A stretch of 64,000 nucleotides of DNA from an uncultured Candidatus Peribacteria bacterium. Lineage in GTDB: Bacteria; Patescibacteriota; Gracilibacteria; UBA1369; UBA12470. This document shows, in pieces, positions 3,617 through 62,757 of this stretch (position 1 is its first letter; each line of letters starts with the position of its first letter). Where the stretch lies: NCBI GenBank assembly GCA_964344725.1, contig CAYFOI010000003.1:1520-65519 (forward strand), given 5' to 3'. A program made the translations under genes and the position numbers. The notes beneath the pieces are model-generated. The model was given only the letters and a program-made list of their open reading frames with translations, made no database searches and was not told the origin of the DNA.

Positions 3617-6600
3617 TCATTCCACAATGCATCCACCAAATGCCCAGTCTTCGCCGTCGCTGTAATAGGAGCTTTCTGAGTATGCTTGTGCTGTGATTTC
3701 ATTATCTGTGCCGTCAAAAGCTACTCCGTTTAGACCTTTGACTGGGGTGTCATTGTCAGTTACTGCTTGAAGTGTACAGCTGTTTGCTGTTGGTGGAATT
3801 GGTGCGTTTATGATTTCTAAGAAATAGTCTTCAGAATAGTATTCAACGCCAAGTCCTTTTAGTGATACTGGTGATCCGTCACAGGTAAGCATCCAGTTGT
3901 CACTGTCTTTTGCGTTTGAATTTAGTCTAATGTTAAATCCAACTCTTGCGATTCCGCCTACAACTGTTCCGTCTTGTTCATAACCTACTACTGGATCAAA
4001 CCATGTTAATATTGGCGAATCGCTGCTTGCAGTTCCAGTTGTGAATACTAGGTCGTAGTCGGCAACATTGAATCCATATACATCTGTGATCGCAGCTCCG
4101 TAGATGCTTAATGTGTACTCAGTGTCTTCTAAAAGCGGTTCTTGTAGAAGCACTCTGTAAGCGTCGAATTCTGGGTCGAATTCGTAAGAGAATGCAGATA
4201 CAGCAGGTGATATAGCCATTGCTCCAGATCCTGTAGATCCGATAGCGTCGTCATATGCTATCATTATTTCCCAAATCATTGGGTCTACGTCTGTTTCTCC
4301 GTTTTCAACACTTGTGTATTCGATTTGTGTTGCTTCGGATGGGTTTAATGACGAATCGGCGTAATACTCGAAATATTCGGCTGGTAAGTCGGTGCCGTTT
4401 CCGTCTTTCAATCCTTCTATTGATAAGGTGTATATCTCGCTGTTGGTTAAGCCTCCTGCGAAGTTAACGTTAATAACGTCGCGGCCATCTTCTAGGCTGT
4501 TTTTCTTAAAAGTGAGTGAGACGGCGTTGCTTTGAGAATCTTTTAACGTGATGTTGTTTGATGTGACTGTTGCTCCGTTAACAGGTCCTGAATAAACCAA
4601 TTGGATTGTTTGTAGATTAGTAGCTACTTGTGAATACCAAGGTGGTTGGACCATCTGTAGCCAAACATCTTCGCCTGAGCTGATCATCATCGGTTCGTAA
4701 GTATCGCTGCCTGTCCATGTCCAAGTGTTTACTGTCATTGCATTTTCTCCAGATCCAACTGTCACTGATAGGTTGTTTGTGTCGTATGCTACTTCTGGTT
4801 GATTGAATATAATCGCCAGTTTTTTATCTGATCCTTCTCCAGCTTCAAAAGTGTCCATTCGAATGAGTGCCCATATGTCCGAAGTTGTTATATAAGGCTT
4901 TAAATCGCTACCAGACAGGTCTGTTATTAGAGTCGGATCGGTACATACAACTGTGCCTAAGGAGAATGGCTCAATCATGCTTTCTACATCTGCGTCACAT
5001 GTGATTGTGGATATTGTTCCTTGGTATGATGGCAAAATCATTACAGATGTCCCTGCTATCCCTTCGTGCATTGGGACGTATTCACCGGTTGCTGGTGGTT
5101 GACCTGTTGTAATATTGCTACATACTCTTTCGCCGCTAAGTCCGCCGATTGTGTTGGCTATTGTAATTTCTACTTGTGATGTGTCGTTGATTGCGTCGGC
5201 TGTGTCGTAAATTACGATTAGTTGGCTCGCATTCTGGTCGTCTTGCATAATCATCAGGATGTTTGAGTCTGTGATGCCGGATTCAAGGCCTGTGTCGTCT
5301 GAATGAGTTACGGCTGCTTTCGCGTAACATGTTCTGCTTTCGTACCCTGTTTCACAAGGTGTTGTGTTGGTAGCTCCGTCTAATTCCTCGTCTAGTGTTA
5401 TTATGACTATTCCATTGCCGTCCATTCCGCTATCGGCTCCTGGCCAGTAGGTTCCGTTTAGTTGTGGTGCTGGTGGCTCTGATTCTTCGAATGTGTCAAA
5501 TAATTTTTCTGATACATTGTTGAATGTGGAAATTGTAAGTTCGAGTTGAGTGTCATCACTTATGGCGTTTTCTGTGTCCATTATGACTACTATCGCTGAG
5601 TTTTCGCTTGGATTTATTGCAATTGCTTCTATTGTGGCTCCGCCTGCTAGTCCTCCTCCTGCGTCAGCAAGGGTCCCGAGTGTTTCGTCGATACATGTTG
5701 CGCTCCCGAATTCTGGTCTGTCAGGGCAGGCTACTTCTTGACCGCTTGAGTTAATTGCTTCTCCATCTGTCAAAGGTCCTTGTAATGTTGTTCTGTTCCC
5801 CCAAGACGCATCAGATTGCATGTATGTCATTGTGCCTCCAGGAGGTGGTGTTGATCCGGCGTTTGTTATATTTGTGTAAGATCCTGTGATGCCTCCTGTG
5901 TTTGCGAGTGAGACTTGTATATCAAGCGGAGTTGCTCCTGTTACTTGATCTGCGCCGTCGAAGACCAGGAAGAGATCGTTTTGAGTAAGGCTTACTCCTG
6001 TTACGAAATCACCTCTTACAGCGCCTAGTAAAGTTGCTCCTGGTGCGAACCCTGAATCGAGAGTTATCGTTGCTGTGTCGTAACATTCTGGGCTTGCTTC
6101 GAGATATCCTGTGATTGCTCCGTCACAAGCTACTACATTTGTTACTCCGTCCGGTTGCTGAGGAAGTTGTATTGTAACAGTTGTGTTGTTTCCTGCAACG
6201 CTGTTGGTGTTGTTGTAGCTGTGGCTTAGTACAGGTGGTTCTTGTTCTTCGGCCCAGTTGGATATTAGTACTTCGGCTACGTTATTATTTGCTTCTGCTT
6301 GTATTTCTATTGCTCCGGGATTCGTTACTGCATCTGCGGCGTCTAGGATTACGGTATACGTATTATCGAGGTCGCCATCTATAATGACAGCTTGTATTGT
6401 GCTTGTTGATAACCCTGTAGCGTTTGCGATTGTGACTACGTTTGTGTTTAGACAAGTCTCGCTGTCATATGCAGGGTCTGCTGGACATGCCGTTGTTAAT
6501 CCGTCTGTTGTGATTGATCCACTTCCAACTAATGGTGGAAATGTTAGGGTTGTTACGGCGAACTTGCTGTTGTCTTGGAAGTATGAACCTGTTCCGGTCG

Positions 6601-16861: not shown

Positions 16862-17797
16862 ATGGCATCAAACATAAGAATTTTCGCTGGAACGTCTCAT
16901 CCTGAGCTGGCGAAAGCTATTTGTAAAAAACTTGGGACAAAGCTTTCTGAGCTAGAGACTTCCAGGTTTGCTTGTGGAGAAATCTATGCAAAGCCTGCAT
17001 CCACTGTACGGGGTGATGATGTGTTCATTATTCAGACAGCAACATCGAATGTTAACGAAGAGCTTATGGAGCTCTTTATTATTATCGATGCGATGAAGAG
17101 GTCTTTTGCGAAAAATGTTCATGTTGTGATCCCACATTTTCCTTATGCGCGTCAGGATCGTGTTGCGTCTCCGCGCGAGCCGATTTCTGCGAAGGTTGTT
17201 GCGAATTTGATTGGTGCGGCTGGGGCTGATCACGTGATGGTTGTTCAGATTCACTCTGAACAACAGCAAGGTTTCTTTCCTTTCCCAATTGATCATTTGA
17301 ATGCGAGGAAGCTTTTTGCGAAATATTTTAAGAAGAAAAAAATCAAAGATCTTGTTGTAGTAGCTCCAGATGCTGGGGCTGCGAAAGATGCTGATCGTTT
17401 AGCGCGGCACTTGGATACAACGATAGCGGTAATGAGTAAGGTTCGGCCTGAGCATAACAAGGCGGAGATTACGTCTCTTGTCGGTGATGTTGAAGGGAAG
17501 AACTGCATCATTTTTGATGATATGATCGATACGGCGGGAAGTATTTGTGCGGCGCATGATTATTTAAAGAAGCATGGGGCGAAAGATGTTTATGTCGCAG
17601 CGACTCATGCGATTTTCTCAGGTCCGGCTGTGGAAAGGCTGAATAAAACTGGCTTCAAAGGAGTGCTTGTAACAGATACGATTCCTGTGAAGGATAAGGT
17701 GAAAGGGCTTGAGGTTATTTCGGTAGCTCCTATGCTTGCGGCGGTGATTAAGAATGTTCATGAGGGGAAGAGTGTGACGTCGGTGTATAGAGGTTAG
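16862..17797 (+). CDS. prs: Ribose-phosphate pyrophosphokinase (PRPP synthetase)
   Basis: Motifs IFAGTSHPELAKAIC, FPYARQDR, VVAPDAGAAK and IIFDDMIDTAGS. Confidence 0.92.
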   Translation: MASNIRIFAGTSHPELAKAICKKLGTKLSELETSRFACGEIYAKPASTVRGDDVFIIQTATSNVNEELMELFIIIDAMKRSFAKNVHVVIPHFPYARQDRVASPREPISAKVVANLIGAAGADHVMVVQIHSEQQQGFFPFPIDHLNARKLFAKYFKKKKIKDLVVVAPDAGAAKDADRLARHLDTTIAVMSKVRPEHNKAEITSLVGDVEGKNCIIFDDMIDTAGSICAAHDYLKKHGAKDVYVAATHAIFSGPAVERLNKTGFKGVLVTDTIPVKDKVKGLEVISVAPMLAAVIKNVHEGKSVTSVYRG

Positions 17798-17863
17798 CTA
17801 TTTAGCTTTTTAGCTAGTTAGCTATTTAGGAACTAATAACTAATAGTTAATAACTTGAATGAC

Positions 17864-17989
17864 ATGCACGTTTATATTGGTTCAGATCACGGTGGTTGCG
17901 GTTTGACGGAGATATCTCTCGCTGGGTTCTCGCTTCGCTGTGAAGTCGCTCGTGATATCTGTCAAACCTTTAATATTTTATTTAAATAA
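17864..17989 (+). pseudogene. Diverged fragment of the rpiB 5' end (41-codon decoy ORF)
   Basis: ATGCACGTTTATATTGGTTCAGATCACGGTGGTT aligns with the rpiB start ATGAGAGTCTATATTGGTTCAGATCACGGTGGTT; 25 nt are identical (17873-17897 vs 18010-18034). The encoded peptide is MHVYIGSDHGGCGLTEI...EVARDICQTF, compared with RpiB MRVYIGSDHGGYKLKEA...DIAREVCEKV. That corresponds to an RpiB N-terminus with an internal deletion. Confidence 0.7.
17900..17968. repeat. Hairpin element, family 2, copy 1 (variable stem, conserved loop ends)
   Basis: The arms GGTTTGAC(GG)AGATATC and GATATCTGTCAAACC form 15 bp with a 2-nt bulge. The 37-nt loop starts TCTCGCTGGG and ends AAGTCGCTCGT. The other copies are at 46315-46383 and 51939-52033. 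Confidence 0.7.
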
Positions 17990-18000
17990 TTGTTTTATTC

Positions 18001-18438
18001 ATGAGAGTCTATATTGGTTCAGATCACGGTGGTTATAAATTGAAAGAAGCTCTGAAGGAAATGCTTGAGGTCCAGGGTACCGAGTTTACGGATTTGGGAT
18101 GTTTTAATGAGGAGAGTTGTGACTATCCGGATATTGCTAGAGAGGTTTGTGAGAAAGTTGCTGCTGATCCTGCGTCGCGGGGTGTTTTGGTTTGTGGGAC
18201 TGGGCTTGGAATGTCGATGGCGGCTAACAAATATCCTGGGATTCGTGCTGCTATGTGTACGACTGAATATATGGCGCAAATGGCGCGGGAGCACAATGAT
18301 GCTCAGGTGATTTGCATGGGTGGTCGTGTAATTGATGTTGAGATTGGGAAGAAAATGCTTGCGATGTTTTTGAAAACAGATTTTTCAGGGGAGGAGAGAC
18401 ATAAGAGAAGGATAGATGGGGTGATGAATATAGTATGA
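18001..18438 (+). CDS. rpiB: Ribose-5-phosphate isomerase B
   Basis: Motifs IGSDHGGYKLKE, CGTGLGMSMAANK and NDAQVICMGGRV; 145 aa. Confidence 0.9.
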   Translation: MRVYIGSDHGGYKLKEALKEMLEVQGTEFTDLGCFNEESCDYPDIAREVCEKVAADPASRGVLVCGTGLGMSMAANKYPGIRAAMCTTEYMAQMAREHNDAQVICMGGRVIDVEIGKKMLAMFLKTDFSGEERHKRRIDGVMNIV

Positions 18439-18500
18439 TTTTTGGTCGATAGGCTCTTTCACTTACGTACAGTACGTTCTTTCGCCTATCGCCAAAAATC
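18437..18500. repeat. Short palindromic element with GATTTTTG...CAAAAATC termini, immediately after rpiB
   Basis: GATTTTTGG(T)CGATAGGC pairs with GCCTATCGCCAAAAATC (17 bp, 1 bulge) around a 29-nt loop. The element overlaps the rpiB TGA stop. Its termini are the same as the outer arms of the family-1 elements at 19405 and 22048. Confidence 0.65.
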
Positions 18501-19403: not shown

Positions 19404-19404
19404 G

Positions 19405-19517
19405 AGATGTTTGTTATTGTCTCGCTTATGGTTTCCTTTCTGTAATTTGGACTCCAGTTTCACCGAAGCCCAAATTACAGAAGCGTGCAAATATAAGCTC
19501 AACAATAACAAAAATCT
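19405..19517. repeat. Nested-hairpin element, family 1, copy A (immediately 3' of tRNA-Arg)
   Basis: Outer arms AGATGTTTGTTATTGTCTCGC and GCTCAACAATAACAAAAATCT pair at 17 of 21 positions. The conserved internal segments are TTATGGTTTCCTTTCTG and CAGAAGCGTGCAAATAT. The inner stem is CTGTAATTTGG/CCAAATTACAG, and the apical loop is ACTCCAGTTTCACCGAAGC. Confidence 0.75.
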
Positions 19518-19665
19518 TATCTATGGCAGTGTCTCGCATTATCTGGCGAGACGTTTCCAAGCTCGCTCTAAACATTCAAAAAATCTTTTGAAGCACTGCT
19601 GATGTTTTGTCGCAACTTTTTCTCTTTAATGGGTTATTGTATCTCAGTAAATAATATCAAACTTC

Positions 19666-19902: not shown

Positions 19903-20004
19903 ATGAAGGACCAGAAATTCAAACTTGTATCAGCTTTTATGAAATATTGCTCAAATGGTTTCCTTTCTGTTATTTGTAGCCCAATTACATCGGATTACAA
20001 ATAA
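19903..20004 (+). pseudogene. Diverged fragment of the uvrB 5' end (33-codon decoy ORF running into element B)
   Basis: 19915-19938 (AAATTCAAACTTGTATCAGCTTTT) matches uvrB 20074-20097 (AAATTCAAACTTGTTTCAGATTTT) at 22 of 24 positions. The decoy encodes MKDQKFKLVSAF..., compared with UvrB MSKFKLVSDF. The decoy ATG is in frame with the uvrB ATG, 165 nt upstream. Confidence 0.65.
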
Positions 20005-20043
20005 CAGAAGCGTGCAAATATTTTCGCAATATTCCTAAAATCT
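19932..20043. repeat. Nested-hairpin element, family 1, copy B (25 nt upstream of the uvrB ATG)
   Basis: The outer arms are AGCTTTTATGAAATATTGC and GCAATATTCCTAAAATCT. The conserved internal segments are TCAAATGGTTTCCTTTCTG and CAGAAGCGTGCAAATATTTTC. The inner stem is CTGTTATTTGTA/TACAAATAACAG, and the loop is GCCCAATTACATCGGAT. Confidence 0.75.
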
Positions 20044-20067
20044 TTATGGATTAATAATTGTTAGCTT

Positions 20068-22047
20068 ATGTCTAAATTCAAACTTGTTTCAGATTTTCAA
20101 CCAATGGGAGACCAGCCGACTGCGATTGCACAGCTCGTCAAAGGTCTTGAGGCGAATAAGAGGTTTCAGACGCTTCTTGGTGCGACGGGGACGGGTAAGA
20201 CTTATGTGATGGCGCAGATTGTTGAGCAGCTGCAGCGGCCTACTATTGTTTTGGCGCATAATAAGACGCTGGCGGCGCAGCTTTTTTCGGAGTTTAAGAG
20301 TTTTTTTCCGGATAACGCGATTTCGTATTTTGTATCTTATTATGATTATTATCAGCCGGAAGCTTATATTGCGCATACGGATACCTATATCGAGAAAGAT
20401 GCGCAGATTAATGAGGAGATTGAGAAGTATCGGCATAAGGCAACGATGAATCTTTTGACGAGGCCGGATACGCTTATTGTTTCTTCGGTTTCTTGTATTT
20501 ATGGTCTTGGGAATCCGGGTGATTATGAGGATCTTAAGATTACTTTAAAAGTAGGGGAGACTCGGCAGAGAGACAAGTTGCTTCGTCATTTGACGGATTT
20601 GCAGTATACGAGGTCGAATATTGAGTTTAAGAACGGGATGTTTCATGTGCTTGGGGATGTCGTGGAGATTTTTCCTCCAGGTATGGATAGCGTTTATCGT
20701 ATTGATTTCTTTGGAGATGAAATTGAAGCGATTCAAGAGGTTGAGCACTTCACTGGAGAGCTTATTGAGGAGCTCTCTGAGGTTACGATTTTCCCGGCCA
20801 AGCATGATGTGACTACTGAAGAGAAGATTAAGCATGCTGTTGAATTAATTCGTCCTGATCTTGAAGCTCGTGTAAAGCAGCTTACTGATATTGGGAAGGG
20901 TCTTGAGGCGCAGAGGCTTCGGACGAGAACGGAGTATGATATTGAGATTTTGCTGGAAACTGGTTATTGCACAGGTATTGAAAACTATGTTCGTTATCTT
21001 AATTTGCGTGAGCCGGGTGAGCAGCCTGCTACACTTTTGGACTACTTCCCGGATGATTTTCTTATGATTATTGACGAGTCGCATATGACTGTGCCGCAGA
21101 TTGGCGCGATGCATAATGGGAATCTTTCACGCAAGAAAAATCTTGTTGAGCATGGGTTCCGTTTGCCTTCGGCTTATGACAATCGTCCGCTTAAGTTTGA
21201 GGAGTTTGAGGATCATGTTAAGAGGTGTGTTTTTGTTTCTGCTACTCCTGGGAAATATGAAATGGCACATACTAAAAAAGCGGATATCGCGGAGCAAATT
21301 ATTCGTCCGACAGGGCTGCTTGATCCGCAGGTTGAGGTTCGCTCCTCAGAAGGGCAGATGAAAGATTTGCGTAAGGAGATTGATAAAGTGCTTGAGCGCA
21401 ATGAGAGGGTTTTGGTGACGACTTTGACTAAGAAAATGGCTGAGGCTCTGACGAAATTCTTGGCTGAGCAAGGACTGAGCGTGAGGTATTTGCATTCGGA
21501 TATTGATACGATGGAGCGTATTGAGATTTTGCGTGATTTACGGCTTGGAAGGTTCGATATTTTGGTTGGAATTAACCTTCTGCGCGAGGGGCTTGATCTG
21601 CCAGAGGTGTCCTTGATTGGAATTCTGGATGCGGATAAGCAAGGGTTCTTAAGGTCTGAGAGTGCACTTATTCAAACCATTGGTCGTGCGGCTCGTAATG
21701 TGAATGGGAAGGTGATTATGTATGCTGACAATATGACTCCTGCTATGGAGGCGGCGATAGGAGAGACTGAGCGTCGTCGTGCTAAACAAGAGGCTTATAA
21801 CAAGGAGCATGGTATTACGCCGCAGACGATTATTAAGAAGATTCACGATATGGAAGAGATGAAGAAAGAGGAAGCTAAGAAGCAAGTTAAGCATTACGAT
21901 GGCAAGAAAGTTCCTCGTGAGGAACGCGAGCGTCTCATTGAAGGTATGGAGGCCGAGATGGATATCGCAGCTCAAAATATGGAGTTTGAAAAAGCTGCTG
22001 AGATTCGAGATGAGATTGAGAGGCTGCAATCTGAGTGGAATATGTAG
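20068..22047 (+). CDS. uvrB: Excinuclease ABC subunit B
   Basis: Motifs GDQPTAI, LLGATGTGKT, DESHMTVPQ, GINLLREGLDLPEV and QTIGRAARN, plus the C-terminal UVR motif (FEKAAEIRDEI). Confidence 0.95.
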   Translation: MSKFKLVSDFQPMGDQPTAIAQLVKGLEANKRFQTLLGATGTGKTYVMAQIVEQLQRPTIVLAHNKTLAAQLFSEFKSFFPDNAISYFVSYYDYYQPEAYIAHTDTYIEKDAQINEEIEKYRHKATMNLLTRPDTLIVSSVSCIYGLGNPGDYEDLKITLKVGETRQRDKLLRHLTDLQYTRSNIEFKNGMFHVLGDVVEIFPPGMDSVYRIDFFGDEIEAIQEVEHFTGELIEELSEVTIFPAKHDVTTEEKIKHAVELIRPDLEARVKQLTDIGKGLEAQRLRTRTEYDIEILLETGYCTGIENYVRYLNLREPGEQPATLLDYFPDDFLMIIDESHMTVPQIGAMHNGNLSRKKNLVEHGFRLPSAYDNRPLKFEEFEDHVKRCVFVSATPGKYEMAHTKKADIAEQIIRPTGLLDPQVEVRSSEGQMKDLRKEIDKVLERNERVLVTTLTKKMAEALTKFLAEQGLSVRYLHSDIDTMERIEILRDLRLGRFDILVGINLLREGLDLPEVSLIGILDADKQGFLRSESALIQTIGRAARNVNGKVIMYADNMTPAMEAAIGETERRRAKQEAYNKEHGITPQTIIKKIHDMEEMKKEEAKKQVKHYDGKKVPREERERLIEGMEAEMDIAAQNMEFEKAAEIRDEIERLQSEWNM

Positions 22048-22158
22048 GATTTTTGTTTATCTTGCTCAAATGGTTTCGTTTCTGTTATTACGAACCCAAT
22101 TTCATCGAGCTCGTAATAACAGAAGCCTGCAAATATTTTCGCAAGACAAACAAAAATC
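22048..22158. repeat. Nested-hairpin element, family 1, copy C (starts 1 nt after the uvrB stop)
   Basis: Outer arms GATTTTTGTTTATCTTGC and GCAAGACAAACAAAAATC pair at 17 of 18 positions. The conserved segments are TCAAATGGTTTCGTTTCTG and CAGAAGCCTGCAAATATTTTC. The inner stem is CTGTTATTACGA/TCGTAATAACAG, and the loop is ACCCAATTTCATCGAGC. Confidence 0.75.
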
Positions 22159-22245
22159 TAATGAGGGTGCTGCTGATGCTCTCTCGACAATAACAAAAAT
22201 CTTTTGAGGAGTGGTTTGTTTTGGTGGCATTTGTTGTTGATATAA

Positions 22246-28398: not shown

Positions 28399-28436
28399 AA
28401 TTTTTTAGAGTTTTAGAATTCTAGAATTCTAGATCT

Positions 28437-29843: not shown

Positions 29844-29893
29844 TATTTATAGGATTATAGGATTTTAGGATTGGAGGATTATAGCGATGGAGC

Positions 29894-31678: not shown

Positions 31679-31746
31679 AGTGTTTAGTGATTAGTATGTT
31701 AGTAGATTAGTTGATTAGAATTTTAGAGTTTTAGAATTCTAGAACT

Positions 31747-33231: not shown

Positions 33232-33274
33232 GATGTTTTAGCTTGTTGGCTTTTTAGCTAGTTAGCTTGTTAGG

Positions 33275-33829: not shown

Positions 33830-33919
33830 CTTTTTAGTAGGTTAGTAGGTTAGTAGGTTAGCTTGTTGCTGATTTGTAACCTCGCTCGAGCTTGGCTTAA
33901 GCGAGGATGAAATCAATAA

Positions 33920-39443: not shown

Positions 39444-41531
39444 TTAATTTATGCGGCTGTCCAATGATATTACCTTTTTGGCGGTTTTGGCAATTTTCTT
39501 TGTTTTTAGGCGTGCTTCAGGTAGTGCGTATTCGGTGAAGCTGTTGAATCCGTCAGGTTCTTGGAATGGTGTTGTGCCTGGAGGTGGAAATGGGATTTTA
39601 TAAATTATCAATGTTTCTAGTGGACCAGGTGATAGCATTTGCCAGAATTTGTAGGTTCCGATAATTATTGTTGTGCTGGGTTTGTTTTCGCTTTTTAGTT
39701 TGATCTTGCCTATTCCGCCTGATGATCCTTGGGTTAAGACTGTGATGCCTTGGTCTTTTAATGGCAGGGCTAATTTGCTATGTAATATTGATGCTGTTCT
39801 TTGTGAATTTACGAGTATGAATGCGGGTTTTTCTAGCTCTTCTAAATTGCTTGAGAGGTAGTTGTCGGCGTTTTCTGTGAAAGCAGGGTCTTTTGGAGGT
39901 GGCAAGTCGATGGTTTCTATTTCCAGATTGTTTGATTCTGCTTCTACTGCGAAGTTTTTCGGCAGATTGAGGAGTCTTTTTATATAAAGTCCTTTAGGGG
40001 ATTCTTGAGCGTATGTTATTGATGTCCCGACGAGTGATAGCTTATCTGGCTTGTTCCAGATTTTTTCTGCTAAAAGTTCACCAATGTTTAATGGTGTGAT
40101 TTTTAGCAGCGGTGAGCCATTTTGCATAAGCATTATCTCTATTCGGAGGTTGAGTGAGCCGTTTTTGCTTTTATCCAAGAATTTCAGAAGTTTTTCTTCT
40201 TCGAATTCGGTACCTAAATCTGCTGCAATTTTTCCTGTGAGGTCTGCGATCTTTTGCCATTCGATTGTCGAGTAATGATACTGATTTAATTCAAGTGCAA
40301 ATTTGTCTCCATGTTTTTCGTACATTATTCCGATGTAGCCGAATAGAATGGTTAATTTCTCTTTTGTTTCTTGTGGGAGTTTTGAGTTTGCAAAGCGTTC
40401 TTCGAAGTAGCTTGCTGTGAAAGCTTGTTGTACGCTTCCATAAAACTCCTCGATGTTGTCTATGATTAGGTGTGTTTCTGTTAAATCTATTTGTTCTGAT
40501 TTTGCTAGTCGTCCGAGTGTGTGGTGGGAAAGGATTGTAGGATCGGAGGATTGGAGGATTTTTAGGGTTTCTGGTGGATAATTGGTGTGGCAGTAGTCGA
40601 ACCAAAGATTTTTGATGTTTTGGGGGAGGGTGATTTGAGTAGCTTGTAGCTGGTAGCTTGTAGGTTGTAGGGGGAGGATTTTTAGGGCGAAGACTGTTTC
40701 TTCTGCGGATAGTGAATCTTTTTTGAGTAGTTCTTTGAATAAATCTGAGTTTAGGTATTGGTTTGGATTTAAGATTGTCAGATTCTCTTGTTCTGTGGTT
40801 GCGATGATTATCTTTTGTTCTGGCTTCTCTGGTGTTATTTCTGCGGTTGTGTGTGGAGGGAGTTCTTGGAGGGTGTTAGCTTGTAGGTTGTAGGTTGTAG
40901 CTTGTAGGTTGTAGGTTGTAGCTTGTTGGGTTTGAGTATTTGGTATTTGGTGGTTTCGCAAGGAGTAAAGGAGGATGTCTTTCCAAGGGGACAGGGATTT
41001 TTCTAGGATTCCTCGGGTTTCTTCTGAATTGTTTTTTGAGAAATACATATCAAGAAGGAGGAATATGATTTCTATATTGTCGATTACGTCTTTTAGGGCG
41101 CGATGTTTTCCAGTTTCCTCAATTCCGAGTTTTTCTGCGATTATTTCTAGGCTGTATGATTTTTCTTTTGGGATAGCGATGTGGGCAATGTCCATTGAGT
41201 CGAGTCTTGTGTTGGGCAGATTGAAACCGTTTTCTTCGAGGAAAGTAATGTCGAAGCTGATGTTATGGCCCATGATTGGATAGTCTTTGATGAAATTCTG
41301 GAGCTCATCTTTGATTTCGTCTATTTGAGGTGCATCTTTGACGTCTTCGTTGGTGATTCCTGTTAGGTTTGTTACTAGGTTTGGGATTGTGACGCCTGGA
41401 TTTATAAAAGTTTCAAATTTGTCTTCTACTTGGCGTGTTTCTAGGTTTACCAAGGCTGCTCCGATCTCAATGATCTTGTCGTGTTCAGGGCTCAGGCCTG
41501 TGGTTTCTATGTCGAGGCAGATGATGTACAT
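39444..41531 (-). CDS. DnaQ-type 3'-5' exonuclease fused to a DinG-like C-terminal region (695 aa)
   Basis: The N-terminus has DEDDh exonuclease motifs (LDIETTGLSPEHDKIIEIGA; GHNISFDITFL; HRALKDV). The C-terminus resembles DinG helicase domain 2 (PAFILVNSQR..., IIIGTYKFWQMLS, LIIYKIPFPPPG). I could not find a Walker A motif. Two spacer-like word-repeat segments are embedded in frame. Confidence 0.7.
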   Translation of the reverse strand: MYIICLDIETTGLSPEHDKIIEIGAALVNLETRQVEDKFETFINPGVTIPNLVTNLTGITNEDVKDAPQIDEIKDELQNFIKDYPIMGHNISFDITFLEENGFNLPNTRLDSMDIAHIAIPKEKSYSLEIIAEKLGIEETGKHRALKDVIDNIEIIFLLLDMYFSKNNSEETRGILEKSLSPWKDILLYSLRNHQIPNTQTQQATTYNLQATTYNLQANTLQELPPHTTAEITPEKPEQKIIIATTEQENLTILNPNQYLNSDLFKELLKKDSLSAEETVFALKILPLQPTSYQLQATQITLPQNIKNLWFDYCHTNYPPETLKILQSSDPTILSHHTLGRLAKSEQIDLTETHLIIDNIEEFYGSVQQAFTASYFEERFANSKLPQETKEKLTILFGYIGIMYEKHGDKFALELNQYHYSTIEWQKIADLTGKIAADLGTEFEEEKLLKFLDKSKNGSLNLRIEIMLMQNGSPLLKITPLNIGELLAEKIWNKPDKLSLVGTSITYAQESPKGLYIKRLLNLPKNFAVEAESNNLEIETIDLPPPKDPAFTENADNYLSSNLEELEKPAFILVNSQRTASILHSKLALPLKDQGITVLTQGSSGGIGKIKLKSENKPSTTIIIGTYKFWQMLSPGPLETLIIYKIPFPPPGTTPFQEPDGFNSFTEYALPEARLKTKKIAKTAKKVISLDSRIN
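40877..40927 (-). repeat. In-frame 21-nt tandem repeat (about 2.4 copies) inside the DnaQ/DinG-like CDS
   Basis: The plus-strand unit is GCTTGTAGGTTGTAGGTTGTA. It encodes QATTYNL-QATTYNL-QA on the minus strand, using the same word vocabulary as the intergenic spacers. Confidence 0.85.
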
Positions 41532-41669
41532 GGGTAGGTAGTGTGTAGTATGTAATCCATAGTACGTAGTATATAGGGTGTAGGGTGTAGGGTGTAGGCT
41601 TTTTTGCTTTCGTATGCAAAAACAGCTTGGTTTTACAAGTTGGATTTTGTTCTAGGATATAATTCGTGA

Positions 41670-45576: not shown

Positions 45577-46239
45577 ATGGGATTCGGAGAAAATCCAAGG
45601 GCTGCTATGGCAGCGGCGTTGTTAGCACTTACTACATTGGCTGGAAGTTGTGATAAGCCAGCTGCTGATGTAGATGCTAGTGCTGTCCCGACAGCTAGAG
45701 GGGCTGAACTGGTTGAAGATTTGCGTGTTGAGGGACAGGAGTTGGTTGATGAGGCTAATGGGCCTGGTGAGGGCAGGATGTATGGGTTTGGTGGTGTTGC
45801 GGCGCATCAGGTTGGAGAGTTTTATGGAGCTTACGGAGATGCGGCTCAAGAACTGCAAGCAATGGGGGATTATGCTGGGTTGGCTGCGTTAGATACCGAA
45901 GTGCAAGCTGTTTATGCTCAGCTTGTTGATTATCCTGAGGGTCAGGAGAGTATGGTTAATCTTGATTTGGCTATGGCTGCTGGACAGGCTTTTCTTGATG
46001 AATTGGCGGGAATTGAGAAAAAGGATGTGACTTATGGAATTCCTCAACTTACTACTGCTGCTAAGCAGAAGTATATTGAATTTGAAGTTGCGTGTTTGCG
46101 TGCTGGCGAGTCAGTGGATCCTATTCGTGACGATATTTATTCTCGGGTTCCTGAGCACCTTAGAGGCGAGGTTGAATCGGGTAGATCAGCAGCTATGGAC
46201 GAAGCTCGAAAAGTATTGTTTGGGGGAGGAGCTGAATAG
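45577..46239 (+). CDS. Hypothetical secreted protein or possible lipoprotein (220 aa), inserted between pyrB and pyrC
   Basis: N-terminus AAMAAALLALTTLAGSCDKP, which is lipobox-like. The rest is an Ala/Glu-rich helical region. TGGTATAAT at 45538-45546 is an extended -10 candidate upstream. Confidence 0.5.
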   Translation: MGFGENPRAAMAAALLALTTLAGSCDKPAADVDASAVPTARGAELVEDLRVEGQELVDEANGPGEGRMYGFGGVAAHQVGEFYGAYGDAAQELQAMGDYAGLAALDTEVQAVYAQLVDYPEGQESMVNLDLAMAAGQAFLDELAGIEKKDVTYGIPQLTTAAKQKYIEFEVACLRAGESVDPIRDDIYSRVPEHLRGEVESGRSAAMDEARKVLFGGGAE

Positions 46240-46286
46240 ATTAAAAACTTGCTCTTATCTCGTAGTGCTTATATTTTGTAAGTACT

Positions 46287-46316
46287 ATGAAAAAGTTACT
46301 TCTCAGAAATGGTTAG
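46287..46316 (+). pseudogene. Diverged copy of the first 9 codons of pyrC (decoy mini-ORF MKKLLLRNG-stop)
   Basis: ATGAAAAAGTTACTTCTCAGAAATGGT aligns with pyrC ATGACAAAACTACTCCTAAGAAACGGT. There are 6 differences and 5 are synonymous. A TAG follows immediately. The copy is in frame with pyrC, 132 nt upstream. Confidence 0.65.
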
Positions 46317-46383
46317 AAATTCAGTAATCTCTCTTGCTCCCGTGCCTAGTCGGACAAGGTCGCTCGATAGATTCTGAATTTCT
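46315..46383. repeat. Hairpin element, family 2, copy 2
   Basis: The arms AGAAATTCAG(T)AATCT and AGATTCTGAATTTCT form 15 bp with 1 bulge. The 38-nt loop starts CTCTTGCTCCCG and ends AAGGTCGCTCGAT. Confidence 0.7.
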
Positions 46384-46418
46384 TAATTAGTTTTTATAAT
46401 ATAATTCTTCTTACTGTT

Positions 46419-47717
46419 ATGACAAAACTACTCCTAAGAAACGGTACAGTTGTAAGCTCTCAGGGGAAACAGCGGGCTGATGTTCTTTGTGAAAACGGAA
46501 AAATCCTGAAGGTTGAGGAGGATATTACGGTTGTTGATGATATGGAAATTATTGATTGTGAGGGCCAGTTCATTATCCCTGGTGTGATCGATACGCATGT
46601 GCATTTGCGTGAGCCGGGTGGTGAGTATAAGGAAGATTTTATTACTGGGTCGAAAGCTGCGGCTCGAGGTGGAGTTACGACAGTTCTTGATATGCCGAAT
46701 AATAGTCCTGTTACAGATTCGGTTGAGACCCTTGAGGCTAAATATGAGATGGCGAAGGGGCGGATGCTTGTTAACTATGGGTTTTATATTGCGGCGACTG
46801 GTTCGAATATTGAGGAATTAAAAAAAGCTGATCGTGCGTGTGGAGTTAAGCTCTTTATGGGTAAGTCGACTGGAGATATTGTTGTAGAGGATGGTCTTGA
46901 TGAAATTTTTGAATTTTGCAAAGAAAGAACGCTTGTTGTTCATGCTGAGGATGAGGAGCGGATTGAGGCTCGAAAGAAGGAATTTGCAGATGTGGATGAT
47001 CCGTCTGTGCATTCTTTGATTCGCGATGAAGAAGCTGCGTATTTAGCGGTTAAGACGGCACTGCATTTGGCGAAAAAGTATGACACTAAGCTTCATATTG
47101 CTCATTTAAGTACTGCTCGTGAGGTTGAGTCTTTGCGGAAATTCCATGGAGATTACGTGACTGCTGAGGCTGCAACTCATCACCTATTTTTAACTACTGA
47201 TGCTTATTCTGAAAAGGGAACTCTTGTTCAAATGAACCCTCCGCTTCGAGAAGTTGGTGATAAGGATGCTCTTTGGGATGCTCTTCGTGAAGGTGTTATT
47301 GATACGGTTATTACAGATCATGCGCCTCATACTCTTGATGAAAAAGGGAAGCGCTATGGGGAGGCTCCTTCTGGTGTACCAGGGCTTGAGACGCTTTTGC
47401 CTCTGATGCTCGATTGTGTTAACCATGGAGATCTTACTTTTGAGAAAATGGTTGAGGTGCTATGCGAAAAGCCTGCCGAGATTTTTGAGCTAGATCGCAA
47501 GGGGCAGATTGCAGAGGGGTATGATGCGGATTTGACGGTTGTGGATATGAGTCGTGAGGAAGTTGTTGGCGAAAAAGGCTACCATTCAAAGTGTGGTTGG
47601 TCTCCTTATGATGGTTGGAAGCTTATTGGATGGCCAGTTGTGACGGTTGTGAATGGCGAGGTTGTGATGCGAGGTGGGGCGGTAGAGGAGAAATTTGTGG
47701 GGGGGGCGGTTTTTTAA
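46419..47717 (+). CDS. pyrC: Dihydroorotase
   Basis: Motifs GVIDTHVHLREPG, VHAED and TDHAPH; 432 aa. Confidence 0.92.
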   Translation: MTKLLLRNGTVVSSQGKQRADVLCENGKILKVEEDITVVDDMEIIDCEGQFIIPGVIDTHVHLREPGGEYKEDFITGSKAAARGGVTTVLDMPNNSPVTDSVETLEAKYEMAKGRMLVNYGFYIAATGSNIEELKKADRACGVKLFMGKSTGDIVVEDGLDEIFEFCKERTLVVHAEDEERIEARKKEFADVDDPSVHSLIRDEEAAYLAVKTALHLAKKYDTKLHIAHLSTAREVESLRKFHGDYVTAEAATHHLFLTTDAYSEKGTLVQMNPPLREVGDKDALWDALREGVIDTVITDHAPHTLDEKGKRYGEAPSGVPGLETLLPLMLDCVNHGDLTFEKMVEVLCEKPAEIFELDRKGQIAEGYDADLTVVDMSREEVVGEKGYHSKCGWSPYDGWKLIGWPVVTVVNGEVVMRGGAVEEKFVGGAVF

Positions 47718-48490
47718 TTCGTAGCTTCTGGTTCTGGAGTTGTTTCAACCAATATATCCTGTATGGCCTCCATAGCCGCCTGAAATCCTTTTTTCCATAT
47801 GCGTCTTTCTGTATGTGGGAATTTGCCTTGTCGTTTAGTTCTTTTTCTTATTGCATCTCTAGACATTCCTGGGTGCGTTGTACACTTGCTTCTAGCTTTT
47901 TTTCTTCTGCGACGAGTGTGTTTCATTTGCTGATATGCTGCGCCATGTATCCTATGAAGAAGTTCTTCTAGCCCATATATTGTTAGGTCCGCTCTTTTGA
48001 GAGACTCTAATGCTCTTGGGTCATGAAAGTTGTCTCCGGCTCTTTCTACATCTTCTAAAATATTGTCACGTTTTTTTCTTGCCGCGTTTAGTTTTTTTAC
48101 TATGTGCTCAGGATCTCTGGCGCCATCTCTAAATATTGCAATAAGCGCTGCTTGGTATTTTAATGTTTGTCTTTTTGTTTGAGGCAATTTTGTATCGTCT
48201 TGAGTTTCGGCTTGCAATGGCAGCAATGTATCATCGGAAGCTTCAACTGATTGAGGTATATCCAAGCCATCTAGCAATGCTTCTCTTGCCGCTAATCTTG
48301 TTCTTCTGATCTTAGTCCTTTGAGATCGTTTCCACTCACTACTTCTTGCGGTAGCTTCCCTTTGCAATCTATGAGCTCCTGGTTCTTCGAAATGTCTATG
48401 TGATAGCTCTAGTCGGTTAGTCCCTTGAGGAACTCTTCCGGTGTTTATGTTTGGTCTTTCGAAGTGTTCTATTCCTTGATTGTTTTGCAT
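47714..48490 (-). CDS. Hypothetical highly basic protein (258 aa), antisense-oriented inside the pyr cluster
   Basis: This is the only long ORF in the 887-nt gap between pyrC and pyrD. It is Arg/Lys/Glu/Gln-rich (RRRRKKARSK; KRTKRQGK) with no hydrophobic segments. Its stop overlaps the pyrC stop within TTTTAATT. Confidence 0.5.
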   Translation of the reverse strand: MQNNQGIEHFERPNINTGRVPQGTNRLELSHRHFEEPGAHRLQREATARSSEWKRSQRTKIRRTRLAAREALLDGLDIPQSVEASDDTLLPLQAETQDDTKLPQTKRQTLKYQAALIAIFRDGARDPEHIVKKLNAARKKRDNILEDVERAGDNFHDPRALESLKRADLTIYGLEELLHRIHGAAYQQMKHTRRRRKKARSKCTTHPGMSRDAIRKRTKRQGKFPHTERRIWKKGFQAAMEAIQDILVETTPEPEATN

Positions 48491-50499: not shown

Positions 50500-51240
50500 A
50501 TGAATCAGCAGCGTAAAGGTTTAGTGCCAGAAGGGCTTAGCAGGCTTGCTAGTAGGGCTTCTACTGGTTTAATGCTGGTTGCTTCTATCGTTTTGATTGG
50601 GGCTTGTGGTGGTAATCGTTATCTTGATGCATATGATGATGATGATAACGTGGGCCGTGTTTCTGCCGGTTGTGGTGATCAGGTTAGACGTCTTCATCAT
50701 TCTACGGAAGATGGTGACCGTCTTACTGATGTTGGTCGTACTATTGAAGAAGGTCTTGAGAGATATCCTGCTGATTTTTATTTGATAGATTTGAGTGGTT
50801 CTATGGGACAGGATGTTGAAGTAATCAGAGCTCATGATTTTCCTGAAGGTGCTGAGGTTTGGGCCTTTAATGCAGGAATGCTTTTCAAGCTTTTTGAACC
50901 GTCTATATCGTATTCTTCGGGAGATACTCCATTGTGGCAATGTTTAGATCGTCTTATCGATCATTATTTGCAAGATCCTGATGGCAAGGAGCTTACTGTG
51001 ATGACTGATGGTGTTGATAATGATTTTAATAATGCTAGTGCTACTCAGACTATGGTTGATGGTATAATTAAGGATGCTAAAGGCAAGAATTTGGTTATTA
51101 ATATGGTTGCTGCTGGTGATTATACCTATGCTCCACAGGGAGTTGTTGATACTATGATGAAGATTCCTAATGAGACTGGTGGTGGACATTTTATTAGAGG
51201 TTTTGAGGAGGATGATAAAGATAAAAGGGAGAGTATATAG
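50500..51240 (+). CDS. von Willebrand factor A-like lipoprotein (246 aa), inserted between pyrK and pyrE
   Basis: Signal peptide plus lipobox (LVASIVLIGAC) and a MIDAS-type motif (YLIDLSGSMG). The later TDG motif (LTVMTDGVDN) is typical of vWA domains. Confidence 0.6.
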   Translation: MNQQRKGLVPEGLSRLASRASTGLMLVASIVLIGACGGNRYLDAYDDDDNVGRVSAGCGDQVRRLHHSTEDGDRLTDVGRTIEEGLERYPADFYLIDLSGSMGQDVEVIRAHDFPEGAEVWAFNAGMLFKLFEPSISYSSGDTPLWQCLDRLIDHYLQDPDGKELTVMTDGVDNDFNNASATQTMVDGIIKDAKGKNLVINMVAAGDYTYAPQGVVDTMMKIPNETGGGHFIRGFEEDDKDKRESI

Positions 51241-51303
51241 TTTTCTCTTTTTTTGAAGATGTGGCATAATGCGCAGCGTCTCTATTCGCTTAATCTTCAA
51301 AAA

Positions 51304-51951
51304 ATGGAAAATGTATCAAAGGAAGTTGCTGGTGCTTTGCTTGGTATTGGCGCTGTGAAAGTTAGTATGGATCCGCCGTTTCAGTGGGTTTCTGGAATAA
51401 AATCTCCTGTTTATTGTGATAATCGCATGATGATTTCGCATGTTGCTGAGAGACAAATCGTTGTTGATGCTTTTAAGAAAATGGTTGCAGATCTTGATTA
51501 TGATCCTGATTACATTGGTGGAACTGCTACTGCAGCTATACCTTGGGCTGGATTTTTGGCTCAGGAACTAGGCAAGCCAATGATTTATATTCGTCCTAAA
51601 AAGAAGGAGCATGGTGCTGGTAAGCAGATTGAAGGTGATCTTGAAGCTGGCAAAAAGGTTCTTATAATTGAAGATCTTATTTCTACTGGCGGAAGTAGTG
51701 TTCGTGCTGCGCAGGCTGTTCGTGAAGAAGGCCAGTGTGAAGTGAGCGACATTTTCGCAATTGTTACTTGGGAAATGGGTAAATCTAAAACTGCTTTCGA
51801 AGAGGCTGGTATCAATTTAACAACACTTACTGGTTTTACTGACCTAATTGGCCTTGCTGAGGAGAGATCTGATATTACTTCTGAACAAGCTGGGATGATT
51901 CATAAGTTCAAGGAAGATCCTGCTGGATGGTGGGATGTAGTATCGTCTTAA
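51304..51951 (+). CDS. pyrE: Orotate phosphoribosyltransferase
   Basis: PRPP-binding motif VLIIEDLISTGGS, plus FQWVSGIKSPVYCDNR. I trimmed the track ORF (51253) to the ATG at 51304 (MENVSKEVAG...), which matches the usual OPRTase N-terminus. Confidence 0.88.
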   Translation: MENVSKEVAGALLGIGAVKVSMDPPFQWVSGIKSPVYCDNRMMISHVAERQIVVDAFKKMVADLDYDPDYIGGTATAAIPWAGFLAQELGKPMIYIRPKKKEHGAGKQIEGDLEAGKKVLIIEDLISTGGSSVRAAQAVREEGQCEVSDIFAIVTWEMGKSKTAFEEAGINLTTLTGFTDLIGLAEERSDITSEQAGMIHKFKEDPAGWWDVVSS

Positions 51952-52033
51952 TGATTCTCGCTCCCGAGAAAGGCCTAATCCCGCTTTGCGGGATTGGTGT
52001 TTCTAAGATCGCTCTAATCATTAAGACGATACT
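51939..52033. repeat. Hairpin element, family 2, copy 3 (stem built from the pyrE 3' end)
   Basis: A perfect 18-bp stem: AGTATCGTCTTAATGATT, which includes the pyrE TAA stop, pairs with AATCATTAAGACGATACT. The 59-nt loop starts CTCGCTCCCG and ends AAGATCGCTCT. The loop contains its own hairpin AATCCCGC-TTT-GCGGGATT (51977-51995). Confidence 0.75.
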
Positions 52034-59762: not shown

Positions 59763-59808
59763 ATTGATTAGCTTTTTAGGTATTTAGCTAGTTGGCTATT
59801 TAGATTTA

Positions 59809-62310: not shown

Positions 62311-62342
62311 GGTTAGTAGTTTAGTAGGTTAGTAAGTTAGAT

Positions 62343-62717: not shown

Positions 62718-62757
62718 TTTTAGTAGCTTAGTAGGTTAGTAAGTTAGTAGGTTAGCG

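Follow-up and report, generated by a model that had tools for sequence, protein, structure and literature searches.

Duplicated Gene Starts Flanking Palindromic Hairpin Elements at rpiB, uvrB, and pyrC of a Candidatus Peribacteria Genome

Results

Genomic Context and Anatomy of the Start Repeats

The window analyzed here is a stretch of 64,000 nucleotides (64 kb) from an uncultured Candidatus Peribacteria bacterium (contig CAYFOI010000003.1), in which the starts of three genes, rpiB, uvrB, and pyrC, each recur 130-165 nt upstream, with a stable hairpin between the two copies. The window represents a Peregrinibacteria-type genome of the Candidate Phyla Radiation (CPR), and the best relatives of its RpiB, PyrC, and Prs proteins were encoded by Peregrinibacteria/Peribacteria metagenome-assembled genomes. 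The genes at these loci are ordinary housekeeping genes. The first two loci lie in the gene order prs - rpiB - rpe - tRNA-Arg - small open reading frame (ORF) - uvrB, with prs (assigned by Pfam) at 16862-17797, rpiB at 18001-18438, and uvrB at 20068-22047; pyrC (46419-47717) lies in a pyr operon that occupies 44.5-53 kb of the window. All four of these genes are on the + strand. A first-pass annotation, made from the DNA letters of the window, had described the three cases as a decoy copy of the gene's own 5' end followed by a hairpin, an AT-rich stretch, and the genuine start, and the coordinates and anatomy that it gave were confirmed.

At rpiB, the upstream copy or decoy (17844-17897, +), as delimited by a 50-nt alignment of the hairpin flanks, comprises the native leader and 11 codons, beginning with the ancestral start (ATG at 17864). 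It is followed by a palindromic element of a family designated family 2 (17900-17968, +), which has locus-specific stems and the boxes CTCGCT and CGCTCG, matched the family-2 covariance model with 60.6 bits, and folded at -25.5 kcal/mol (z -3.0). Behind the element, at 17969-18034 (+), a tail of approximately 10-12 nt precedes the second copy of the repeat, which consists of a duplicated leader with a TAATAAT box and the working start at 18001. Positions 17863-17897 and 18000-18034 were identical at 31 of 35 positions, with a fully identical core of 25 nt (17873-17897 and 18010-18034). The decoy opens an ORF of 41 codons (17864-17989, +), the length given in the first-pass annotation, which runs through the hairpin and ends with a TAA that precedes the real ATG by 11 nt.

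The uvrB decoy (19903-19938, +) encodes the ancestral start MKDQKFKLVS in its native context and opens an ORF of 33 codons (19903-20004, +); its strict repeat, 19915-19938, matched 20074-20097 at 22 of 24 positions. The hairpin between the copies (19933-20047, +; -29.8 kcal/mol, z -4.7) combines an outer stem of the family-2 type with a different apical module, designated D1. A filler with a TAATAAT box, the working start (ATG at 20068), and repeat copy 2 (20074-20097) occupy positions 20048-20097 (+). At pyrC, copy 1 (46270-46316, +) contains a leader, the ancestral start (ATG at 46287), nine codons, and a TAG. Next come a family-2 element (46316-46380, +; covariance-model match 50.6 bits), for which the hairpin 46313-46380 folded at -25.0 kcal/mol (z -3.3), and, at 46381-46445 (+), a filler and a duplicated leader with a TATAAT-like box and the working start (ATG at 46419). 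The two pyrC copies were identical at 18 of 27 positions beyond the ATG and encode MKKLLLRNG* (upstream) and MTKLLLRNGT (downstream). The decoy ends with GGT TAG directly before the hairpin (46311-46316), and a GGT occurs at the same codon of the real copy, 132 nt downstream (46443-46445). The hairpins at all three gene starts folded well below shuffled controls and, since the uvrB hairpin has a family-2-type outer stem, all three cases share the family-2 scaffold.

An independent ENA assembly (L001; related assemblies and contigs are denoted by L numbers) differed from the window at 2 of 6133 bases and contained the same rpiB and uvrB repeats, which indicated that the architecture is not an assembly artefact. 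A related rpiB module was found in three further assemblies (L117, L118, and L119). The window is referred to below as lineage A, L117 as lineage B (L118 and L119 being identical to L117, and L014 its continuation), and L002 as lineage C, to which L116, from the same metagenome of origin as L002, probably also belongs. The scope of the analysis is thus three gene-start loci in the window and one orthologous lineage that carries two units.

Statistical Support and Extent of the Repeats

When the initial 60 nt of each of 52 genes were scored against the 250 nt upstream of all other genes, the 99.9th percentile of the score was 12, as against scores of 25 for rpiB and 18 for uvrB with their own upstream regions. 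In an ATG-anchored comparison, the pyrC value of 18 exceeded the null maximum of 17 (2550 pairs); one score of 27 was set aside because it probably reflects, although this was not checked, the start of one gene within the upstream region of its neighbour. Local alignment of the 60-nt flanks of each hairpin gave p < 0.0005 for both rpiB and uvrB and p = 0.007 for pyrC. The repeats were therefore far beyond chance expectation.

The flank alignments of rpiB (50 nt, p < 0.0005) and pyrC (41 nt, p = 0.007) both reached approximately 20 nt upstream of the ATG, so that the duplicated stretch runs from there through codon 9-12. Repeat lengths were about 54 nt at rpiB and about 44 nt at pyrC, and at least 24-33 nt were demonstrable at uvrB (33 nt with the help of L014). 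The repeats are thus longer than given in the first-pass annotation, whose 25-nt identical rpiB core was confirmed. In all three window cases, as well as in L117, the hairpin lay exactly at the junction of the two copies and never inside a copy.

The layout of L117 showed what the AT-rich stretch at rpiB consists of. After the prs stop codon, L117 continues with TTTTAATAACTGTTTGTGAT ATGCACGTTTATATGG (36 nt of leader plus decoy), a 74-nt family-2 hairpin, and a 12-nt tail; the same 36 nt then recur, followed by a second hairpin and tail and by TTTTAATAATCGCTTTTGCCC ATGCATGTCTATATTGG.., the real rpiB. Two tandem 122-nt units of leader, decoy, and hairpin (3942-4223 of L117, also present at the ends of L118 and L119) thus precede rpiB. 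The decoy repeats of these units were identical to each other at 36 of 36 positions and their hairpins at 72 of 86, a layout which shows that repeat-hairpin-repeat units are amplified by unequal exchange. It also shows that some 20 nt of native leader belong to the rpiB repeat. The native leader of L117, TTTTAATAACTGTTT, and the window filler TTTAAATAATTGTTT were identical at 13 of 15 positions. By this comparison, the AT-rich stretch at rpiB consists of the short tail of the element and a second native-leader copy; it is not the independent third component proposed earlier. Because it contains this second copy, the rpiB repeat measures approximately 45-55 nt rather than 25 nt.

The earlier proposal that the decoy derives from a diverged rpiB allele with an internal deletion was not supported. 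It had relied on a likeness between the end of the decoy ORF and RpiB (EVARDICQTF and DIAREVCEKV). BLASTP did not detect this likeness, its similarity between decoy ORF and RpiB being confined to residues 1-16. Instead, what encodes the tail of the ORF is a box conserved in the hairpin family, its right box (GTCGCTCG), and this box is present at non-rpiB loci too. The left arm of the hairpin was also rejected as a continuation of the gene, be it as a deleted allele or as an inverted target duplication, since collinear local alignments gave p = 0.23 for rpiB and 0.51, 0.03, and 0.57 otherwise.

Nor was support found for the idea that the elements themselves supplied a new ATG with one or two codons. 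At rpiB, the entire leader and ATG are a duplicate. At uvrB, MS.. is a normal and common UvrB N-terminus elsewhere, and the seemingly new start is a diverged second copy. In L014, codons 2-4 of the ancestral start come directly after ATGTCG, and by comparison the window has lost 9 nt from its real uvrB start.

Empty Sites and Polarity

Comparison of the loci in sister genomes, as suggested in the first-pass annotation, identified sites with a single copy and no hairpin for each gene: L003, L007, L011, L120, and L121 for rpiB; L002 and L011 for uvrB; and L094, L095, L115, and L116 for pyrC. In L011, L120, and L121, prs and rpiB are separated by spacers of 4-60 nt without a hairpin (4 nt in L120, 11 nt in L121); the spacers of L007 and L117 measure 24 and 22 nt. 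In L094, L095, L115, and L116, pyrC has a single start without upstream hairpin, which in L094, L115, and L116 lies 0-31 nt after pyrB. The uvrB module is absent from L002, and the pyrC module is absent from L116.

At all three loci, the single start of hairpin-free relatives resembled the decoy and its context. At rpiB, the string tgacATGCACGTTTA of the window decoy is the real start context of L003 and L007, and most relatives share the N-terminus MHVYIGSDHGG with the decoy (MHV..), as against MRV.. for the real start of the window. The hairpin-free real uvrB start of L002, ggctaatctttttcacaATGAAGGACCAAAAATTCAAACTTGT, was identical to the window decoy at 28 of 31 positions, with conserved upstream context, and the context of pyrC copy 1 resembles the pyrB-pyrC spacer of L094 and L115. 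Because hairpin-free sisters carry one start that matches the decoy and its context, these alignments established the decoy as the ancestral start, still in place, with the hairpin and the working start lying behind it.

Further examples were sought in a nucleotide-level scan of 1.66 Mb from 115 sources and in a 30-nt window scan of 28 sources, neither of which yielded any outside the lineage of the window. Apart from the L117 rpiB module, which was found separately from these two scans, approximately 1.7 Mb of relatives thus yielded no additional case. A scan match in L024 was an A-rich chance match inside a gene. Short RpiB calls starting from Met14 (P0015, P0017, P0019, and P0027) were gene-calling artefacts, as L011 has a normal full-length start, and length differences among L011, L012, and L013 reflected a scaffold gap of Ns rather than insertion polymorphisms.

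Age, Concerted Evolution, and Selection

The rpiB hairpin of the window is orthologous to the copies in L117 and L002. The L002 contig begins in the right arm of a hairpin, which is followed, as in the window, by filler and ATGAGAGTA; the prs contig of lineage C, which would reveal whether L002 has an rpiB decoy, was not in the protein collection. The rpiB module predates the split of at least two, and probably three, of the lineages A, B, and C. Identity at four-fold degenerate sites between these lineages was 0.39-0.49, i.e., near saturation. The events are old.

Against this background, the rpiB decoy start is strongly conserved. Its first 14 nt were identical to those of the L117 decoys, and these 14 nt plus the stems matched L117 at 51 of 53 positions, as compared to 67 of 168 (40%) at four-fold sites (Fisher p = 1e-14), so that decoy start and stems are under purifying selection. 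The element tail matched at only 8 of 12 positions, and leader and apical core had, by eye, diverged too. Such a fine-grained mosaic of conserved and diverged segments indicates purifying selection rather than recent transfer. For the uvrB decoy, the 28/31 identity to the functional start of L002 compares with a four-fold identity of approximately 0.45. Old start and hairpin were thus kept under selection, and the structure persisted through saturating sequence divergence.

The identity of the 25-nt rpiB core is no sign of a young event. The codons GGT GGT are specific to the window and common to its decoy and its real copy; other lineages have GGA GGG, GGT GGG, or GGC GGA. To judge by these codons, the two rpiB copies of the window evolved in concert, the 25/25 core reflecting concerted evolution or secondary extension in this lineage.

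The Hairpin Family

The family-2 scaffold consists of long locus-specific stems that always pair and of the boxes CTCGCT (left) and CGCTCG (right), which enclose an exchangeable apical module. Compensatory changes were found at 9 of 11 predicted pairs among eight family-2 copies and at 13 of 46 pairs among three 115-nt D1 copies. The window contains three copies of each type, and the covariance model identified further copies in L014 and L117 and a single one in L011, which is more distant. D1 gave a weak match to the family-2 model (18.6 bits, E = 0.26); its outer stems at the tRNA-Arg and uvrB 3' sites appeared, by eye, orthologous to family-2 stems of L014. All copies found with the covariance model were on the gene strand, and most started 0-5 nt after a stop codon or after the tRNA, the L011 copy likewise lying behind a stop codon. 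Together with the compensatory pairs, this shows that the hairpin structure is selected and that its usual place is the transcript 3' end. In Rfam 15, only tRNA-Arg passed the gathering score; the hairpins gave sub-threshold matches to plant and animal microRNA precursors, and a permissive threshold returned nothing relevant to them.

Outside the three start repeats, a D1 copy directly follows tRNA-Arg (19404-19520, +), at a site that is empty in L002; a D1 copy with a partial second right arm directly follows the uvrB stop codon (22048-22209, +); and a family-2 copy (51939-52033, +) starts within the stop codon of a phosphoribosyltransferase (PRTase) gene. A different small hairpin of 61 nt, designated family 1 (18439-18499, +), directly follows the rpiB stop, its first bases completing the TGA. 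None of these four has a detectable flanking repeat. The three 115-nt D1 copies (19404-19520, 19933-20047, and 22048-22162) all lie within 3 kb.

Several observations illustrate the plasticity of these elements. In L014, the sites behind tRNA-Arg (2638-2711) and uvrB (4937-5017) have D1-like outer stems but a family-2 apical module, so that apical modules have seemingly been swapped between the CTCGCT and CGCTCG boxes. Elements in L014 are also nested in each other's loops. A copy nearly identical (~93%) to the family-1 hairpin lies at about 5269-5330 of L014, nested within the loop of a family-2 element that follows uvrB, and family 1 is therefore probably mobile. The rpiB stop and rpe start overlap (ATGA) in L002; in the window, the family-1 hairpin and 82 nt lie between the two genes. 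Partial tandem duplications of right arms at 22127-22166 and 22170-22209 of the window, and of a right arm plus left box at 2654-2819 of L014 (71-nt period), show frequent unequal exchange within the elements.

Discussion

Origin of the Duplicated Starts

With a probability of roughly 60%, we interpret each of the three cases as an old insertion of a small palindromic element, similar to repetitive extragenic palindromic (REP) sequences or miniature inverted-repeat transposable elements (MITEs), into the first 5-12 codons of a gene, accompanied by a long direct target duplication and later retained, at least at rpiB, as a working leader. Insertion with target duplication classically leaves one copy at empty sites and two, on either side of the element, at filled sites, as was seen here. 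Among the origins listed in the first-pass annotation, the scar left by a non-autonomous element that inserted with a long target duplication was accordingly the best supported, by the empty sites and by the position of the hairpin at the junction. The duplication would have been made by the insertion itself, through staggered breaks some 4-5 helical turns apart, and not in a separate step. The upstream copy is the original leader and start, from which a short ORF now extends into or through the hairpin, and the downstream copy, with its own copy of the leader, is the working start. Near a start, only duplications that span leader and ATG would leave the gene intact, which would explain why the survivors near gene starts look alike. 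In a related but doubtful reading, the elements themselves may insert via staggered breaks of approximately 50 nt made by an undescribed enzyme.

A number of observations weigh against this interpretation. Six other hairpins in the window had no flanking repeat (60-nt flank alignment, p = 0.18-0.98), so that a long duplication is either not general for these elements or has decayed where it was not selected. Duplication of the uvrB leader lacked statistical support, as did the window leaders when considered alone (p = 0.5-0.8). No transposase, integrase, or HUH gene was present among 27 window proteins scanned, and the locus-specific stems without conserved terminal inverted repeats are atypical for a transposase substrate. 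L003 has no rpiB module despite lying at no greater distance from the window than L117, and either a precise loss or a particular tree is needed to accommodate it. L014 shares a stem remnant, filler, and ATGTCG with the window at uvrB but has no decoy, which requires a later deletion or a different history. Finally, sampling was small, with three loci and one orthologous lineage.

A two-step origin appears unlikely. It would involve tandem duplication of leader, start, and first codons by replication slippage, which does no harm since the second copy is complete, with later arrival of a hairpin in the dispensable junction, or the same steps in reverse order. Unequal exchange and partial tandem duplication do affect these units (L117; L014; 22127/22170 in the window), and hairpins without flanking repeats are what would be expected if the elements make no long duplication. 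Two independent steps leave unexplained, however, that the hairpin occupied the exact junction in three of three window cases and in L117, without ever lying inside a copy, and that repeat lengths were similar at rpiB (~54 nt) and pyrC (~44 nt). Moreover, a hairpin-free allele with a duplicated start was encountered in none of the relatives examined.

The conservation data could also be read as evidence for a dedicated regulatory leader, in which an upstream ORF (uORF) and a hairpin attenuator or relay control rpiB, uvrB, and pyrC and any likeness to an insertion scar is secondary. Such a device would account for the 51/53 identity of rpiB decoy start and stems against 40% at neutral sites, for the 28/31 conservation of the uvrB decoy, for in-frame length differences (21 and 6 nt) and an open frame through the hairpin in window and L117, and for an rpiB uORF stop 11-15 nt before the real ATG. 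But it explains maintenance rather than how a gene came to have a copy of its own start, and we consider it improbable as the primary cause: the same hairpin family mostly follows stop codons without any decoy, close relatives run these genes without any module, uORF layouts differ wholly among the three genes, and neither an alternative terminator/antiterminator pairing nor regulatory codons were identified. The leader-peptide and hairpin control device suggested in the first-pass annotation thus holds in part for rpiB, with its conserved start and stems and open frame in two lineages, and not for uvrB and pyrC.

Homology-facilitated illegitimate recombination is known from Acinetobacter and pneumococcus. 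Applied to the present loci, a hairpin, promoter, and gene from a diverged relative would have replaced the resident gene through one homologous and one illegitimate end, stranding the resident start, much as the donor 5' ends envisaged in the first-pass annotation. Decoy and real starts do look like different alleles (MHV and MRV, MKDQKF and MSKF, MKK and MTK), differences between the pyrC copies are almost all synonymous, MS.. is common as UvrB N-terminus elsewhere, and extra ORFs surround pyrC in the window lineage. Yet in L117 the native leader beside prs recurs in front of the real start, as a local duplication rather than foreign sequence; the rpiB decoy matches the real copy at 25 of 25 positions and has lineage-specific codons (GGT GGT) in common with it; nucleotide identity to L002, L014, and L003 was unchanged across the junctions; and the constant position of the junction, at the left base of the hairpin and in codons 5-12, is left unexplained. 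This scenario is therefore quite improbable.

Even less credible is an origin from site-specific integrative elements that targeted gene 5' ends, carried a replacement end, and were reduced by interior deletion to approximately 100 nt. The rpiB repeat is a mosaic of an identical 25-nt core and a diverged ATG side (4/9 differences), reminiscent of an attachment-site (att) core, and D1 and family-2 elements also occur at the tRNA-Arg 3' end. In genuine attL/attR duplications, a direct repeat of a gene end likewise places a displaced fragment on one side and the intact gene on the other. Here, in contrast, the element measures only ~85-135 nt, no integrase or other recombinase was found among the 27 window proteins scanned, the second leader copy is native sequence (L117) and not element-borne, the three unrelated targets would need three dedicated elements, and the hairpins belong to one abundant family mostly without repeats.

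Programmed translational bypassing of the T4 gene 60 type, with take-off at the last shared codon and landing on the same codon in the second copy, is hardly believable, since its formal ingredients (GGT followed by TAG and hairpin, with GGT 132 nt downstream) occur at pyrC only, rpiB and uvrB having no stop codon after the shared stretch, since downstream copies in all lineages keep an ATG and leader that bypassing does not need, and since the gaps exceed the 50 nt of gene 60 by a factor of 2-3. Tandem gene duplication with deletion of copy 1 was rejected, because the hairpin that separates the copies bears no relation to the one behind rpiB in the same genomes and deletion ends would not cluster at codons 5-12.

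Relation to Known Small Repeats

The arrangement is a variant of known small-repeat biology. Like the bacterial MITEs and REP-type palindromic repeats reviewed in PMC3184786 (Correia, RUP, BOX, Nezha, and REP/REPIN), the elements are non-coding long stem-loops of 60-120 nt, present in many copies, mostly intergenic and near gene ends, with filled and empty sites among relatives and flanking direct target repeats, and they can carry or create transcription signals. Related copies and presence/absence differences among relatives, both expected of MITEs, were observed. Unlike MITEs, the stems covary and differ by locus, with two short conserved boxes and an exchangeable apical module in place of conserved terminal inverted repeats matching a parent insertion sequence (IS), and no parent IS was found. 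Instead of a fixed short target duplication at every copy, three copies had duplications of ~24-54 nt (~45-55 nt at rpiB and pyrC, as compared to 2-10 bp) and six had none detectable. Conserved boxes within a hairpin and post-gene positions fit REP/REPIN sequences, which are short imperfect palindromes with a conserved 5' tetranucleotide, often arranged as inverted doublets; neither a partner transposase nor a REP-associated tyrosine transposase (RAYT) gene was seen in the window, and no doublet organisation was observed. The CPR host is a further difference.

Two systems in the same review (PMC3184786) provide closer comparisons for an insertion at a gene start. Neisseria REP2 also lies directly upstream of genes, with promoter, initiation region, and ATG fused to the reading frame, but REP2 itself supplies the promoter, ribosome-binding site, and ATG, whereas at rpiB, uvrB, and pyrC leader and ATG duplicate those of the target gene itself, whose old start is retained upstream. 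Rickettsia palindromic elements and other intragenic repeats are likewise tolerated inside housekeeping coding sequences; the Rickettsia elements are translated in frame, while here the protein is untouched because a second start lies behind the element.

Long target duplications have precedents in the small, AT-rich, reduced genomes of mycoplasmas, in which IS1630 and IS1634 generate unusually long and variable duplications of tens of bases. These are autonomous elements with transposase genes, and no such gene or IS-like ends were identified here. Leader-peptide attenuators and termination-reinitiation systems share a short uORF, a stable hairpin, a stop near the main start (as at rpiB), and a conserved upstream start, but differ in that the uORF here begins as a copy of the regulated protein's N-terminus and that its layout varies among the three genes. 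To our knowledge, the combination of start duplication, retained ancestral start, and conserved hairpin has not been described, and the corresponding statement in the first-pass annotation that no described family shows it is fair.

An insertion of this type would provide a route for small repeats into essential genes, as a duplication spanning leader and ATG rebuilds a complete gene behind the insertion, and would in this case have split a tight operon (prs-rpiB spacers of 4-24 nt in relatives). There are also practical consequences for CPR genomes. Contigs L002, L014, L118, and L119 end inside these elements, which indicates that the elements break assemblies; gene callers will annotate decoy ORFs as genes; and start-site prediction in genomes without Shine-Dalgarno pairing should allow for duplicated starts.

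Possible Present-Day Roles

After insertion, a hairpin at the RNA level would end or insulate the upstream transcript and so separate the upstream from the downstream gene, a role suggested by the family's usual location immediately behind stop codons and its co-orientation with genes. The duplicated leader would have acquired a -10-like TAATAAT box 5-6 nt before the ATG, allowing the gene to run on its own, possibly from a nearly leaderless transcript. The string AATAATTGTT occurs exactly twice in the 64 kb, each time 5-6 nt before a new ATG, and pyrC has TATAATATAAT.

At rpiB, translation would still begin at the old site and continue across the hairpin to a stop codon 11-15 nt short of the real ATG, at which ribosomes would re-initiate. 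Of the frames that cross the hairpin, only the one set by the decoy ATG is free of stop codons, both in the window and in the two units of L117. The length differences between window and L117 (21 and 6 nt) both preserve this frame, and every uORF terminates with a TAA that lies in the following leader copy, 11-15 nt from the ATG of that copy. Peribacter riflensis, the representative of the Peregrinibacteria in a published survey, is listed among organisms without a CCUCC anti-Shine-Dalgarno sequence (PMC10783764). The short prs-rpiB spacers of relatives (4-24 nt) fit ancestral translational coupling and, combined with the open in-frame uORF, the stop near the ATG, and the missing anti-Shine-Dalgarno sequence, make termination-reinitiation a reasonable proposal for rpiB. 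A stronger version, in which decoy and hairpin were co-opted as a translational relay in a lineage without Shine-Dalgarno pairing and translation of the hairpin-encoded peptide melts the element, is conceivable but doubtful. Two observations weigh against it: openness of the frame taken alone gave p = 0.11-0.22, and the relay fits rpiB only, as the uvrB uORF stops inside the hairpin and the nine-codon pyrC uORF before it. If such a relay operates, a selfish insertion in an essential gene would have been made harmless, then indispensable, and doubled in lineage B. Acting as relay or insulator, the repeat would be a domesticated translation or transcription signal in a phylum whose expression signals are almost unknown.

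Additional Observations

Two ORFs without Pfam match, 45577-46239 (+) and 47714-48490 (-), flank pyrC and interrupt the pyr operon in this lineage only, pyrB-pyrC-pyrD being contiguous in relatives. No flanking repeats could be demonstrated for the two ORFs, and candidate repeats around the ORF 45577-46239 or the tRNA-Arg insertion were not significant in AT-rich spacers. Further downstream, an 80-nt hairpin (51237-51316) starts at the stop codon of the preceding gene and holds in its right arm a candidate ATG (51305) for the pyrE-like PRTase, which makes the true start of this gene uncertain.

Approximately 15 intergenic arrays of 7-8-nt tandem units, each containing TAG (TTAGCTAT, TTAGTAGG, TAGGTTG, TAGAATTC, and others), occur in the window, among them those at 17794-17829, 28406-28433, 29847-29884, 31684-31744, 33238-33273, 33834-33861, 40877-40926, 41574-41598, 59768-59803, 62311-62340, and 62720-62755. 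Several lie directly upstream of start codons and others directly after stops. Between prs and rpiB of L003 lies a short-period tandem array whose units are different. For an organism that lacks Shine-Dalgarno pairing, the TAG arrays could serve as stop-codon traps or initiation regions. A GC-rich hairpin motif, GGAGCGC-N2-6-GCGC, was present in five copies (9032, 32139, 36491, 49587, and 58496) as compared to 0.03 expected; all five are intergenic and on the + strand, whatever the direction of the neighbouring genes.

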